From NCBI RefSeq assembly GCF_054482595.1, contig NZ_CM137008.1: a stretch of 64,000 nucleotides of DNA; one strand, 5' to 3'. The notes below the pieces were generated by a model that saw only the letters and a list, made by a program, of their open reading frames with translations, was not told where the DNA came from and did no database searches. Shown here in pieces: positions 15,194-28,124 of the stretch; the stretch's first letter is position 1, and every line of letters starts with the position of its first letter. The position numbers were made by a program, and so were the translations under genes.

Positions 15194-17244
15194 TGAGCGC
15201 GCTCAACTCCCTGCCATTACCGGTGGTCAGGCTGCTGGCGTTCTTTCATGAAGAGTTAAGCGAGCGGCGACCAGGTCGCGTGCCGCAGACCGTGCAACTC
15301 TGGGTAGGCTGCCTGCTGGTGATTCTGATCTCGATGACTTTTGAGATCCCTTTTGTGGCGTTATCGCTGGCAGTGCTGTTTTACGGTATTCAGTCGAACG
15401 CGTTTTACACCAAATTTGTCGCGATCTTGTTTGTGGTTGCCACGGTGCTGGAGATCGGCAGCCTGTTTTTGATCTACAAATGGTCATACGGCGAACCGTT
15501 GATCCGCTTGATCATCGCCGGACCGATCCTGATGGGCTGCATGTTTTTGATGCGCACCCATCGCTTGGGGCTGGTCTTTTTCGCCGTCGCCATTGTCGCT
15601 ATTTACGGGCAAACCTTCCCCGCCATGCTCGACTATCCGGAAGTGGTCGTGCGCTTAACGCTGTGGTGTATCGTTGTTGGCCTCTATCCAACCTTGCTGA
15701 TGACGTTAATCGGCGTGCTGTGGTTTCCCAGTCGTGCCATTTCGCAAATGCATCAGGTGCTTAATGATCGGCTTGATGATGCCATTAGCCACCTGACGGA
15801 CAGCCTCGCACCGCTACCCGAAACGCGGATTGAAAGAGAGGCGCTGGCGCTGCAAAAACTCAATGTCTTTTGCCTCGCGGACGATGCCAACTGGCGAACC
15901 CAGAGTGCATGGTGGCAAAGCTGCGTGGCAACGGTAACCTACATTTACTCGACGCTGAATCGCTACGATCCCACCTCTTTTGCTGATTCTCAGGCAATTA
16001 TTGAATTCCGACAAAAATTAGCTTCAGAAATCAACAAGCTGCAGCATGCCATTACCGAAGGTCAGTGCTGGCAAAGCGACTGGCGGATCAGTGAAAGTGA
16101 AGCGATGGCGGCACGGGAATGTAACCTGGAGAATATCTGCCAGACACTGTTACAGCTTGGTCAGATAGACCCGAATACGCCGCCAACGCCCGCAGCCAAA
16201 CCGCCATCAATGGCCGCCGATGCTTTTACCAATCCAGACTATATGCGCTACGCGGTAAAAACGCTGCTCGCCTGTTTGATCTGTTACACCTTCTACAGCG
16301 GCGTGGACTGGGAAGGCATTCACACCTGTATGCTGACCTGCGTGATCGTCGCTAATCCGAATGTCGGTTCATCGTACCAGAAGATGGTGCTGCGTTTTGG
16401 CGGGGCCTTTTGCGGCGCGATTCTGGCGCTGTTATTCACGCTACTGGTCATGCCCTGGCTGGACAATATTGTCGAATTGCTGTTTGTGCTGGCACCGATT
16501 TTCCTGTTGGGCGCATGGATTGCCACCAGCTCTGAACGCTCTTCTTATATCGGCACACAGATGGTGGTTACCTTCGCGCTCGCCACGCTCGAAAACGTTT
16601 TTGGCCCGGTGTACGACCTGGTGGAAATTCGCGATCGCGCCCTGGGTATCATCATTGGTACCGTGGTGTCCGCGGTGATTTACACCTTTGTCTGGCCTGA
16701 AAGTGAAGCGCGCACGCTGCCGCAAAAACTGGCTGTCGCGCTGGGTATGTTAAGTAAAGTAATGCGGATCCCACGCCAGCAGGAAGTCACGGCTCTGCGC
16801 ACTTATCTGCAAATTCGTATAGGTCTGCATGCGGCGTTTAATGCCTGTGAAGAGATGTGCCAACGCGTGGCGCTGGAGCGTCAACTGGACAGCGAAGAAC
16901 GCGCCTTACTGATTGAACGTTCGCAAACGGTTATTCGTCAGGGCCGCGATCTTCTTCACGCCTGGGATGCCACCTGGAACTCGGCGCAGGCGCTGGATAA
17001 CGCACTACAGCCGGACAGAGCAGGTCAGTTTGCCGACGCTCTGGAAAAATACGCTGCCGGTCTGGCAACCGCACTCAGCCGTTCTCCTCAAATAACGCTT
17101 GAAGAGACACCCGCCTCGCAGGCCATCCTGCCCACCTTATTAAAACAGGAGCAACACGTCTGCCAGCTTTTCGCCCGCTTGCCAGACTGGACAGCCCCGG
17201 CATTAACGCCCGCCACGGAACAGGCACAAGGAGCCACACAATGA
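15193..17244 (+). CDS. mdtO: Multidrug efflux inner-membrane component (FUSC-like)
   Basis: 683 aa multi-TM ORF; start overlaps mdtN stop. Confidence 0.85.
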   Translation: MSALNSLPLPVVRLLAFFHEELSERRPGRVPQTVQLWVGCLLVILISMTFEIPFVALSLAVLFYGIQSNAFYTKFVAILFVVATVLEIGSLFLIYKWSYGEPLIRLIIAGPILMGCMFLMRTHRLGLVFFAVAIVAIYGQTFPAMLDYPEVVVRLTLWCIVVGLYPTLLMTLIGVLWFPSRAISQMHQVLNDRLDDAISHLTDSLAPLPETRIEREALALQKLNVFCLADDANWRTQSAWWQSCVATVTYIYSTLNRYDPTSFADSQAIIEFRQKLASEINKLQHAITEGQCWQSDWRISESEAMAARECNLENICQTLLQLGQIDPNTPPTPAAKPPSMAADAFTNPDYMRYAVKTLLACLICYTFYSGVDWEGIHTCMLTCVIVANPNVGSSYQKMVLRFGGAFCGAILALLFTLLVMPWLDNIVELLFVLAPIFLLGAWIATSSERSSYIGTQMVVTFALATLENVFGPVYDLVEIRDRALGIIIGTVVSAVIYTFVWPESEARTLPQKLAVALGMLSKVMRIPRQQEVTALRTYLQIRIGLHAAFNACEEMCQRVALERQLDSEERALLIERSQTVIRQGRDLLHAWDATWNSAQALDNALQPDRAGQFADALEKYAAGLATALSRSPQITLEETPASQAILPTLLKQEQHVCQLFARLPDWTAPALTPATEQAQGATQ

Positions 17245-18707
17245 TCAATCGTCAACTTTCACGTCTGCTGTTGTGCAGCATTCTCGGCAGCACGACGCTG
17301 ATTTCCGGCTGTGCCCTGGTACGCAAGGATTCTGCGCCTCATCAACAGCTCAAACCGGAACAAATCAAACTGGCCGATGATATTCATCTTGCCAGCTCCG
17401 GCTGGCCGCAGGCGCAGTGGTGGAAACAACTCAATGACCCGCAGCTGGATGCGCTGATCCAACGGACGCTAAGTGGTTCACACACCCTCGCCGAAGCGAA
17501 ACTGCGGGAAGAAAAAGCGCAGTCCCAGGCCGATTTGTTAGATGCCGGTTCACAATTACAGGTCGCAGCGTTAGGGATGCTCAACCGCCAACGCGTCTCG
17601 GCGAACGGCTTTTTAAGCCCTTATGCGATGGATGCGCCAGCACTGGGTATGGACGGGCCGTACTATACGGAAGCCACAGTAGGTTTGTTTGCCGGACTGG
17701 ATCTTGATTTGTGGGGTGTGCATCGCTCAGCGGTTGCCGCCGCCATTGGCGCGCATAATGCCGCGCTGGCAGAAACCGCAGCAGTAGAGCTATCGCTGAC
17801 CACGGGCGTAGCGCAGCTTTATTACAGTATGCAGGCCAGCTATCAGATGCTCGATCTGTTAGAACAAACTCGCGATGTGATTGATTACGCGGTGAAAGCG
17901 CACCAGAGTAAAGTGGCGCAAGGTCTGGAAGCGCAAGTGCCTTTCCACGGCGCGCGGGCACAGATTCTGGCGGTCGATAAACAAATTGCTGCCGTCAAAG
18001 GGCAAATCACCGAAACGCGAGAATCTCTGCGTGCATTGATTGGCGCGGGAGCCAGCGATATGCCGGAGATCAAACCTGTAGCATTACCACGAGTTCAGAC
18101 CGGCATTCCGGCGACACTCTCTTATGAGTTGCTCGCCAGACGCCCGGATCTGCAAGCCATGCGCTGGTATGTTCAGGCGTCATTAGATCAGGTGGATTCC
18201 GCGCGGGCGTTGTTCTACCCGAGCTTTGATATCAAAGCGTTTTTCGGCCTTGATGCCATCCACCTGGATACCTTATTCAAAAAAACCAGTCGCCAGTTCA
18301 ACTTTATCCCGGGTCTGAAATTGCCGCTGTTTGACGGTGGACGGTTGAATGCCAATCTCGAAGGCACGCGCGCCACCAGCAACATGATGATTGAACGTTA
18401 CAACCAGTCAGTACTGAACGCGGTGCGTGACGTTGCCGTCAACGGCACGCGTCTGCAAACGCTCAACGACGAGCGAGAAATGCAGGCTGAACGCGTGGAA
18501 GCCACGCGCTTCACCCAGCGCGCTGCCGAGGCCGCCTATCAGCGCGGCTTAACCAGCCGCTTACAGGCCACTGAAGCCCGGTTGCCAGTACTTGCCGAAG
18601 AGATGTCATTACTGATGCTGGACAGCCGCCGGGTGATCCAAAGCATTCAGTTGATGAAATCGCTGGGCGGCGGGTATCAGGCGGCTCCCGTCGTCGAGAA
18701 AAAATAA
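17241..18707 (+). CDS. mdtP: Outer-membrane efflux factor (TolC-like lipoprotein)
   Basis: 488 aa; lipobox LISGCAL; start overlaps mdtO stop. Confidence 0.85.
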   Translation: MINRQLSRLLLCSILGSTTLISGCALVRKDSAPHQQLKPEQIKLADDIHLASSGWPQAQWWKQLNDPQLDALIQRTLSGSHTLAEAKLREEKAQSQADLLDAGSQLQVAALGMLNRQRVSANGFLSPYAMDAPALGMDGPYYTEATVGLFAGLDLDLWGVHRSAVAAAIGAHNAALAETAAVELSLTTGVAQLYYSMQASYQMLDLLEQTRDVIDYAVKAHQSKVAQGLEAQVPFHGARAQILAVDKQIAAVKGQITETRESLRALIGAGASDMPEIKPVALPRVQTGIPATLSYELLARRPDLQAMRWYVQASLDQVDSARALFYPSFDIKAFFGLDAIHLDTLFKKTSRQFNFIPGLKLPLFDGGRLNANLEGTRATSNMMIERYNQSVLNAVRDVAVNGTRLQTLNDEREMQAERVEATRFTQRAAEAAYQRGLTSRLQATEARLPVLAEEMSLLMLDSRRVIQSIQLMKSLGGGYQAAPVVEKK

Positions 18708-18836
18708 AATGTCTGCCGCGTGATGGCTGTCACGCGGTATTTCGTTTCGTCACGTCAAAACTGACGACAGCCTGTTTTTCGTCAGAGTTTTGAATAAATA
18801 GTGCCCGTAATATCAGGGAATGACCCCAAATAAAAT

Positions 18837-18853
18837 GTGGCATAAAAGATGCA
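18837..18853 (+). promoter_or_regulatory. Sigma-54 (-24/-12) promoter of fdhF
   Basis: TGGCAT-N6-TGCA with canonical GG-to-GC spacing, ~50 nt upstream of the fdhF ATG; upstream gtcacg/cgtcaaaa/tgacgac repeats (18745-18790) fit the FhlA UAS known for fdhF. Confidence 0.5.
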
Positions 18854-18904
18854 TACTGTAGTCGAGAGCGCGTATGCGTGATTTGATTAACTGGAGCGAG
18901 ACCG

Positions 18905-21052
18905 ATGAAAAAAGTCGTCACGGTTTGCCCCTATTGCGCATCAGGTTGCAAAATCAACCTGGTCGTCGATAACGGCAAAATCGTCCGGGCGGAGGCAGCG
19001 CAGGGGAAAACCAACCAGGGTACCCTGTGTCTGAAGGGTTATTATGGCTGGGATTTCATTAACGATACCCAGATCCTGACCCCGCGCCTGAAAACCCCCA
19101 TGATCCGTCGCCAGCGTGGCGGCAAACTCGAACCTGTTTCCTGGGATGAGGCACTGAATTACGTTGCCGAGCGCCTGAGCGCCATCAAAGAGAAGTACGG
19201 TCCGGATGCCATCCAGACGACCGGCTCCTCGCGTGGTACGGGTAACGAAACCAACTATGTAATGCAAAAATTTGCGCGCGCCGTTATTGGTACCAATAAC
19301 GTTGACTGCTGCGCTCGTGTCTGACACGGCCCATCGGTTGCAGGTCTGCACCAATCGGTCGGTAATGGCGCAATGAGCAATGCTATTAACGAAATTGATA
19401 ATACCGATTTAGTGTTCGTTTTCGGGTACAACCCGGCGGATTCCCACCCAATCGTGGCGAATCACGTAATTAACGCTAAACGTAACGGGGCGAAAATTAT
19501 CGTCTGCGATCCGCGCAAAATTGAAACCGCGCGCATTGCTGACATGCACATTGCACTGAAAAACGGCTCGAACATCGCGCTGTTGAATGCGATGGGCCAT
19601 GTCATTATTGAAGAAAATCTGTACGACAAAGCGTTCGTCGCTTCACGTACAGAAGGCTTTGAAGAGTATCGTAAAATCGTTGAAGGCTACACGCCGGAGT
19701 CGGTTGAAGATATCACCGGCGTCAGCGCCAGCGAGATTCGTCAGGCGGCACGGATGTATGCCCAGGCGAAAAGCGCCGCCATCCTGTGGGGCATGGGTGT
19801 AACCCAGTTCTACCAGGGCGTGGAAACCGTGCGTTCTCTGACCAGCCTCGCGATGCTGACCGGTAACCTCGGTAAGCCGCATGCGGGTGTAAACCCGGTT
19901 CGTGGTCAGAACAACGTGCAGGGTGCCTGCGATATGGGCGCGCTGCCGGATACGTATCCGGGATACCAGTACGTGAAAGATCCGGCTAACCGCGAGAAAT
20001 TCGCCAAAGCCTGGGGTGTGGAAAGCCTGCCAGCGCATACCGGCTATCGCATCAGCGAGCTGCCGCACCGCGCAGCGCATGGCGAAGTGCGTGCCGCGTA
20101 CATTATGGGCGAAGATCCGCTGCAAACTGACGCGGAGCTGTCGGCAGTACGTAAAGCCTTTGAAGATCTGGAACTGGTTATCGTTCAGGACATCTTTATG
20201 ACCAAAACCGCGTCGGCGGCGGATGTTATTTTACCGTCAACGTCGTGGGGCGAGCATGAAGGCGTGTTTACTGCGGCTGACCGTGGCTTCCAGCGTTTCT
20301 TCAAAGCAGTTGAACCGAAATGGGATCTGAAAACGGACTGGCAAATCATCAGTGAAATCGCCACCCGTATGGGTTATCCGATGCACTACAACAACACCCA
20401 GGAGATCTGGGATGAGTTGCGTCATCTGTGCCCGGATTTCTACGGTGCGACTTACGAGAAAATGGGCGAACTGGGCTTCATTCAGTGGCCTTGCCGCGAT
20501 ACTTCAGATGCCGATCAGGGGACTTCTTATCTGTTTAAAGAGAAGTTTGATACCCCGAACGGTCTGGCGCAGTTCTTCACCTGCGACTGGGTAGCGCCAA
20601 TCGACAAACTCACCGACGAGTACCCGATGGTACTGTCAACGGTGCGTGAAGTTGGTCACTACTCTTGCCGTTCGATGACCGGTAACTGTGCGGCACTGGC
20701 GGCGCTGGCGGATGAACCTGGCTACGCACAAATCAATACCGAAGACGCCAAACGTCTGGGTATTGAAGATGAGGCATTGGTTTGGGTGCACTCGCGTAAA
20801 GGCAAAATTATCACCCGTGCGCAGGTCAGCGATCGTCCGAACAAAGGGGCGATTTACATGACCTACCAGTGGTGGATTGGTGCCTGTAACGAGCTGGTTA
20901 CCGAAAACTTAAGCCCGATTACGAAAACGCCGGAATACAAATACTGCGCCGTGCGCGTCGAGCCGATCGCCGATCAGCGCGCCGCCGAGCAGTACGTGAT
21001 TGACGAGTACAACAAGTTGAAAACTCGCCTGCGCGAAGCGGCACTGGCGTAA
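18905..21052 (+). CDS. fdhF: Formate dehydrogenase H, selenocysteine-containing (UGA at codon 140 recoded as Sec)
   Basis: Two in-frame ORFs (18905-19324, 19373-21052) separated only by TGA 19322-19324 in the conserved CCARV-U-HGPSVAG context; N-terminal Fe-S motif CPYCASGCK; 715 aa total. Confidence 0.9.
19322..19366 (+). other. Selenocysteine UGA codon plus SECIS stem-loop
   Basis: tgacacggcccatcggttgcaggtctgcaccaatcggtcggtaatggcg: hairpin immediately 3' of the in-frame UGA, matching the fdhF SECIS as I recall it. Confidence 0.8.
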
Positions 21053-27456: not shown

Positions 27457-28124
27457 TGGCTCACCTCCCCGTATTTAAACGGTACGCGGTACAGCTTCGG
27501 TTTGGTTCCCAGCGCCAGCTTGTAGCGGTAAGTAGGCTTCTGGCGCAGCAGTTGCGAAATCTCACTGTTAGGATCGTCCAGATTGCCAAACGTCAGCGCC
27601 TTCGTCGGGCAAGCCTCAACGCACGCGGGCAGCTTACCGGCCTGCAAATTGGTCTTACGGCAGAAATCGCATTTGTCCGCCGTCTTCGTGACCGGATGGA
27701 TAAAGCGCACGCGGTACGGACAGGCGGCGATGCAGTACTGACAACCGACGCAGAGATCAGGATTAACATCGACAATCCCGCTAGCGGCATCACGAAAAGA
27801 CGCACCGGTCGGGCAGACGTCAACGCACGGCGCATGATCACAGTGCTGGCAAGACTTACGGAAGAAGCGATATTTCACATCAGGAAATTCGCCCTGCGGC
27901 TCGCTACGAATAATCGTCAGGCGCGAGACGCCTTCCGGCACCTTGTTCACTTCCCGACAAGCATCCATACAGGCGGTACAGCCGATGCATAACGACTCGT
28001 CATGCACCATGCCGTAACGTACCCCATTGATATTCAACGTTTTCGCCACCACGCGTCCTGCGGTGCCGCTGACGGCTGCCAGCACGCCGACGCCGGTGAG
28101 AAACTGGCGACGAGACCAGGTCAT
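27453..28124 (-). CDS. nrfC: NrfC 4Fe-4S ferredoxin-type subunit (Tat-exported)
   Basis: 223 aa; twin-arginine signal (SRRQFLTG); multiple CxxCxxC clusters. Confidence 0.9.

Follow-up and report, generated by a model that had tools for sequence, protein, structure and literature searches.

The fdhF promoter is a classic system of sigma-54 and an enhancer-binding protein, and it has been characterised since the late 1980s. The upstream activating sequence of fdhF reportedly lies about 110 bp upstream of the transcription start, as Birkmann and Bock are said to have found in 1989. The hyc and hyp promoters use IHF, and the hyf operon is activated by HyfR, a paralogue of FhlA. According to the literature, FhlA is activated by formate and binds upstream of fdhF and hyc, and fdhF is listed as FhlA-dependent (PMC3844500, PMC4987338). 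Bonocora et al. (2015) describe a 17-mer upstream of the gene as the sigma-54 ChIP-seq site OS41, which they assign to fdhF (fold-above-threshold score 41) and for which they predict a start 19 bp past the centre of the motif, at a distance of 41 bp from the gene; the fdhF promoter is flagged there as experimentally confirmed in EcoCyc (PMC4591121). Genomic SELEX also places a peak of the RpoN holoenzyme in the spacer between fdhF and mdtP (PMC8743547). In Salmonella, the homologous fdhF site TGGCATAAAACATGCATA is bound by sigma-54 in ChIP-chip, and fdhF induction is 29-fold and sigma-54-dependent (PMC3844500). A Proteus mirabilis fdhF reporter is less active in fhlA and rpoN mutants and more active with formate (PMC7658346).

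The window, by which we mean the whole stretch of 64,000 nucleotides analysed here, carries the 197-bp mdtP-fdhF spacer of Escherichia coli at 18708-18904, with both flanking genes on the plus strand. On the 5′ side, the coding sequence at 17241-18707 matches the NCBIfam model for MdtP (NF007390) with 1022 bits against a cut-off of 597, in agreement with the RefSeq annotation, and its stop codon ends at 18707. On the 3′ side, an in-frame TGA (19322-19324) breaks fdhF into two entries of the ORF list, 18905-19324 and 19373-21052; the two lie in one frame and together form a plus-strand coding sequence of 715 codons at 18905-21052. The halves on either side of the TGA match the NCBIfam Fdh-alpha model TIGR01591 at profile positions 1-128 and 130-672. 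A bacterial SECIS hairpin at 19317-19371 on the plus strand (Rfam RF01988, SECIS_2; 87.1 bits against a gathering score of 70, E = 3e-19) recodes the TGA as selenocysteine. Together these matches identify 18905-21052 as fdhF, which encodes the selenoprotein formate dehydrogenase H of the formate hydrogenlyase complex.

A 311-bp query covering the spacer is found at 95% identity or more in 5419 of 5426 complete E. coli genomes, everywhere between genes annotated as mdtP and fdhF. A comparison with K-12 MG1655 over 297 bp shows three base differences. The only one of these in the spacer is at 18829 (A here, C in K-12), 9 bp upstream of TGGCA and outside both the promoter and the enhancer elements. 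The spacer being otherwise that of K-12, the published K-12 data carry over directly. We conclude that the region is almost certainly the native regulatory region of E. coli fdhF, comprising a sigma-54 promoter and upstream FhlA repeats. As such, it is already known and has no discovery value.

The sequence-only reading of this DNA had proposed a -24/-12 promoter, TGGCAT-N6-TGCA, at 18837-18853. The motif is present, but TGGCAT starts one base later, at 18838. The match TGGCATAAAAGATGCA occupies 18838-18853, and the 17-nt form GTGGCATAAAAGATGCA, at 18837-18853 on the plus strand, is the same as ChIP-seq motif OS41. Its GG (18839-18840) and GC (18851-18852) are 10 nt apart, the canonical -24/-12 spacing within the consensus TGGCAC-N5-TTGCA/T. 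The motif is intergenic, in the sense orientation, and starts 67 bp before the fdhF ATG. Its assignment as a -24/-12 promoter is borne out by the GG/GC spacing, the context, the conservation and the published sigma-54 occupancy of an identical sequence. The same reading had named a sigma-70 promoter elsewhere as the finding that would speak against it, and such a promoter gains no support from a scan of 18500-19100, where no sigma-70-like promoter was found.

A bare pattern match was dropped as evidence by itself since its frequency is within chance. The expectation for TGGCAY-N6-TGCW in a shuffled 64-kb window is 0.87 matches, and one or more turned up in 56 of 100 shuffles; by itself, the pattern does not stand out from chance in a sequence of this length. 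The fdhF motif is instead counted as real because of its position, orientation, conservation and published occupancy. Scored with an RpoN matrix of 186 sites (PMC7658346, Table 2), it reaches 13.6 bits and ranks third of about 128,000 positions in the window, below two intragenic sites and directly above the pspG promoter.

The two sites that outscore fdhF on the RpoN matrix are TGGCAGACGTGTTGCT at 17150-17165 on the minus strand, antisense inside the mdtO coding sequence, and TGGCGCAGCAGTTGCG at 27541-27556 on the plus strand. The genes that hold them were not found in the published ChIP-seq tables. The mdtO antisense site is probably a chance match, since it is not among the published ChIP-seq sites of the paper’s main text.

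The predicted transcription start, 18864 on the plus strand, follows the motif centre by 19 bp and precedes the ATG by 41 bp; this rule comes from Table 1 of PMC4591121 and is carried over by sequence identity. A Shine-Dalgarno sequence, GGAG, can be read at 18893-18896 on the plus strand, 8 nt before the fdhF ATG. An inverted repeat with arms at 18844-18856 and 18872-18884 was examined as a candidate regulatory hairpin and discarded, since its left arm falls before the predicted start and its sequence lacks conservation.

Upstream of the promoter, repeats of the types gtcacg, cgtcaaaa and tgacgac had been noticed in 18745-18790 and taken for the site of an enhancer-binding activator. Our analysis recovers these repeats. 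The core upstream activating sequence spans 18745-18785 and consists of TTTCGTCA at 18745-18752, the palindrome CGTCAAAACTGACG at 18753-18766, TGACGA at 18762-18767 and TTTCGTCAG at 18777-18785. The two copies of TTTCGTCA, starting at 18745 and 18777, flank the palindrome as half-sites, and the inverted repeats TCGTCA, TGACGA and TCGTCAG start at 18747, 18762 and 18779. GTCACG occurs twice, at 18729 and 18749.

This arrangement is singular within the window. CGTCAAAACTGACG is the only occurrence of CGWCA-N4-TGWCG in the 64 kb, where 0.29 are expected; the three-copy cluster of TCGWCA at the enhancer is likewise the only one, as is the cluster of three TTTCGT copies at 18740, 18745 and 18777. 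Counted from the predicted start (18864), the array of half-sites at 18729-18785 covers -135 to -79, and the centre of the palindrome lies at -104.5. The reported position of the activating sequence, about -110, agrees with this centre.

The proposed extent of the enhancer needs adjustment. The region 18745-18790 does hold the core, but the first GTCACG lies outside it, and the array probably begins at about 18729. This distal GTCACG (18729-18734, plus strand), at -135 to -130 from the predicted start, is a probable outer activator half-site, a putative function suggested by its direct repeat and by the conservation of GTCAC. The enhancer thus probably starts inside the mdtP terminator hairpin. 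The bases contacted by FhlA and the exact start site are predictions.

Existing descriptions of FhlA motifs do not single out the fdhF site. The 16-mer consensus CATTTCGTACGAAATG, which PMC4987338 quotes from Leonhartsberger et al. (2000), reaches 9 of 16 positions at its best local match, and its best match in the window is elsewhere. We rejected it as a site descriptor, only its half-site TTTCGT being informative here. A weight matrix of 13 FhlA sites (PMC7658346, Table 2) does select CGTCAAAACTGACG as the best local site, with 8.1 of a possible 17.4 bits, which ranks 117th in the window; it was therefore set aside as a discriminator too. Other FhlA targets also fit poorly, the consensus CATTTCGTACGAAATG being matched at only 10-11 of 16 positions at the hyc/hyp, hydN and hyfA loci, in some cases within coding sequence. 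For this reason we hold both the consensus and the 13-site matrix to be weak descriptors, and the 16-mer not to be a strict test; its mismatch at fdhF nonetheless counts against the FhlA assignment.

In operational terms, the footprint across species describes the fdhF enhancer more cleanly than either of these. We scanned one genome per species with a degenerate pattern derived from the N-terminal coding sequence of fdhF, which yielded 120 loci, 118 of them with enough upstream sequence; a matrix score of at least 11 within 200 nt upstream was counted as a sigma-54 motif. Such a motif occurs in the sense orientation in 84 of the 118 fdhF-like loci and in the antisense orientation in one. The palindrome CGWCA-N4-TGWCG lies within 200 bp upstream in 79 of 85 sigma-54-positive loci (the window itself counted) and in none of the 34 fdhF loci that lack the motif. 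The centre of the palindrome is 78-79 bp from the T of TGGCA in 56 loci, and 78 bp in the window. Minor distance classes of 69, 100-104 and 110-113 bp are roughly whole helical turns apart. The enhancer can thus be described as CGWCA-N4-TGWCG with flanking TTTCGWCA half-sites, 78-79 bp before TGGCA.

Loci that lack the sigma-54 motif include those of Pasteurellaceae and Burkholderiales and the second paralogues of some Enterobacteriaceae. In Enterobacter, Leclercia and Entomohabitans, a second fdhF-like gene (L013, L016, L071, L085) has neither the sigma-54 motif nor the palindrome upstream, and the same is true of the fdhF homologues of Pasteurellaceae (e.g. L009, L036, L038). Genes of this kind must be under different control. 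A further variant occurs in Edwardsiella, Hafnia and Enterobacillus (L017, L025, L054, L083, L089), where 110-165 bp separate the sigma-54 promoter from the ATG and the leaders are much longer. These loci share a common CTTTATAGTTCA block between enhancer and promoter that may be a bend site of the IHF type, absent from E. coli.

A MAFFT alignment of about 30 genera, anchored on the promoter and read in window coordinates, resolves the conservation along the spacer. Among these enterobacterial genera, no part of the spacer is better conserved than the palindrome with its TTTCGTCA half-sites. Block 18746-18768, TTCGTCACGTCAAAACTGACGA, is nearly invariant: most of its columns reach 90-100% identity, and variation is greater in the four bases that separate the arms. 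Column identity is 70-90% in the adjacent block 18772-18786 (CTGTTTTTCGTCAG) and 60-70% in the GTCAC at 18729-18733. The promoter block at 18838-18855 exceeds 90%, including the TGGCA and TGCA columns. Sequence upstream of the enhancer block cannot be aligned between genera, and the conservation of the enhancer is therefore not carried over from mdtP. The proposal that the repeats are an enhancer-binding activator site thus finds backing in their co-occurrence with the sigma-54 motif only and in their being the most conserved upstream block.

Between enhancer and promoter, a further conserved block at 18806-18828 (CCGTAATAT ... AAT.CCC.C) has 70-90% column identity in the roughly 30 genera, at 18806-18814 and 18820-18828. 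No IHF consensus occurs in 18806-18828 at up to one mismatch. This block may correspond to a ‘spacer’ region reported to matter for the control of fdhF by oxygen and nitrate.

The 5′ end of the spacer encodes a second element. A terminator scan identified a terminator-like hairpin with a T-rich tail at 18714-18749 on the plus strand (stem-loop 18714-18739, 11 pairs), whose 3′ arm holds the distal GTCACG. As RNA, the hairpin folds with -19.6 kcal/mol (z = -4.3) and is followed by the tail TTTCGTTTCG. In the alignment, paired changes in Kluyvera cryocrescens, from CGTGA to CATGA and from TCACG to TCATG, keep the stem. From its sequence, the hairpin with its tail looks like the intrinsic terminator of mdtP.

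The GTCAC of this arm is kept in 60-70% of the genera other than Escherichia; where the upstream sequence is unrelated, it still lies about 18-19 bp before the first TCGWCA, and it could thus serve as an outer activator half-site as well. Conservation of the distal GTCACG may also be due only to its place in the mdtP terminator. We tentatively speculate that the terminator’s 3′ arm (GTCACG, 18729-18734) might double as the outermost FhlA half-site and that FhlA, working without an IHF bend, might have a strict face-of-helix requirement; taken jointly, these two propositions are a possibility that we regard as rather doubtful. If true, one stretch of DNA would serve both as the RNA terminator of mdtP and as part of the fdhF enhancer.

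The overlap raises the question of whether the upstream repeats belong to the 3′ end of mdtP and nothing else, as terminator and 3′-UTR structure, with fdhF activated from elsewhere or without an enhancer. The strength of the hairpin at 18714-18739, which with its T-rich tail overlaps the first GTCACG, and the stem-preserving changes in Kluyvera cryocrescens would fit such an explanation, but the hairpin ends at 18739, whereas the most conserved block is 18746-18786. This block is kept in Enterobacter, Kosakonia, Klebsiella, Buttiauxella and Cedecea, where the upstream sequence cannot be aligned with mdtP. Its distance to the -24 element is fixed, and loci without a sigma-54 motif do not have it. 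Palindromes of this type upstream of hydN and hyfA also speak for an enhancer, and we consider an exclusively mdtP-related origin of the repeats highly improbable. Even less can be said for transcription of fdhF from a conventional sigma-70 promoter in the spacer, with a fortuitous match to TGGCAT-N6-TGCA. The chance frequency of the bare pattern and the two higher-scoring intragenic sites would permit a fortuitous match, but the scan of 18500-19100 yielded no sigma-70-like site, and occupancy of the identical sequence by sigma-54 is on record both in vivo and in vitro (PMC4591121, PMC8743547). The strong bias for the sense orientation (84 against 1 of the 118 loci) and the rpoN dependence in Salmonella (PMC3844500) and Proteus (PMC7658346) make a sigma-70 origin next to impossible.

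The identity of the activator is a separate matter. Another enhancer-binding protein such as HyfR might use the enhancer mainly or additionally, so that FhlA would not act alone. The hyfA gene, too, is preceded by a palindrome of the fdhF type, the fit of published FhlA motif models to the fdhF site is poor, and hyfR lies inside the operon hyfABCDEFGHIJR-focB and encodes a member of the same activator family as FhlA (PMC8743547). The sequence holds nothing to tell HyfR from FhlA, but the literature assigns fdhF to FhlA (PMC3844500, PMC4987338), and a Proteus fhlA mutant loses fdhF promoter activity (PMC7658346). We thus deem a main or additional role of HyfR very unlikely and retain FhlA as the activator of the fdhF promoter.

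With FhlA as the activator, the elements of the spacer suggest the following mechanism. Sigma-54 RNA polymerase would bind the -24/-12 element at 18837-18853 and form a closed complex that is unable to start alone. Formate would activate FhlA, an enhancer-binding AAA+ ATPase, whose predicted target is the array at 18729-18785, made up of TCG(T/A)CA-type half-sites roughly 80-135 bp upstream with CGTCAAAACTGACG at its centre, at about -105. FhlA may then oligomerise on the array and contact the bound polymerase by looping out the intervening DNA, and its ATP hydrolysis would open the promoter. Transcription from near 18864 would give a 41-nt leader before the fdhF ATG. No IHF-like site occurs between enhancer and promoter in the fdhF spacer at up to one mismatch, and we therefore do not propose an IHF-assisted loop. 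The distance classes across Enterobacterales, which differ by approximately whole helical turns, suggest that helical phasing may matter more than an assisted bend.

Like fdhF, the FhlA-dependent genes hycA, hypA, hydN and hyfA each have TCG(T/A)CA-type half-sites clustered upstream of a sigma-54 promoter, but these half-sites differ from those of fdhF in number, orientation and spacing. In K-12, palindromes of the CGWCA-N4-TGWCG type occur in the spacers upstream of hydN (CGACACTAGTGACG) and hyfA (CGACACGGGTGTCG). The exact palindrome is absent from the K-12 hyc/hyp region, and a copy with one mismatch lies in the hycA-hycB spacer. The 1.8-kb K-12 hyc/hyp locus contains seven copies of TCGWCA against 1.9 expected, and these cluster in the hycA-hypA and hycA-hycB spacers.

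The window offers a second promoter for comparison. The pspG promoter TTGGCATGATTCTTGTA, at 55165-55181 on the minus strand with the pspG ATG at 55130, is the published ChIP-seq site OS40 (PMC4591121). A perfect IHF consensus, AATCAATAGATTA, lies at 55186-55198, directly upstream of its -24 element. The quoted enhancer consensus of PspF has no match within three mismatches anywhere in the 64-kb window. The two promoters belong to the same class, but that of pspG is PspF-dependent, adjoins an IHF consensus and lacks a TCGWCA array. The closest described system is the K-12 fdhF promoter (fdhFp) itself, with which the locus shares its spacer (bar one base), its flanking genes, the 17-nt sigma-54 motif and the 41-bp distance from the predicted start to the ATG. 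The single substitution at 18829 is the only departure from it, and there is no consequential difference between the two.
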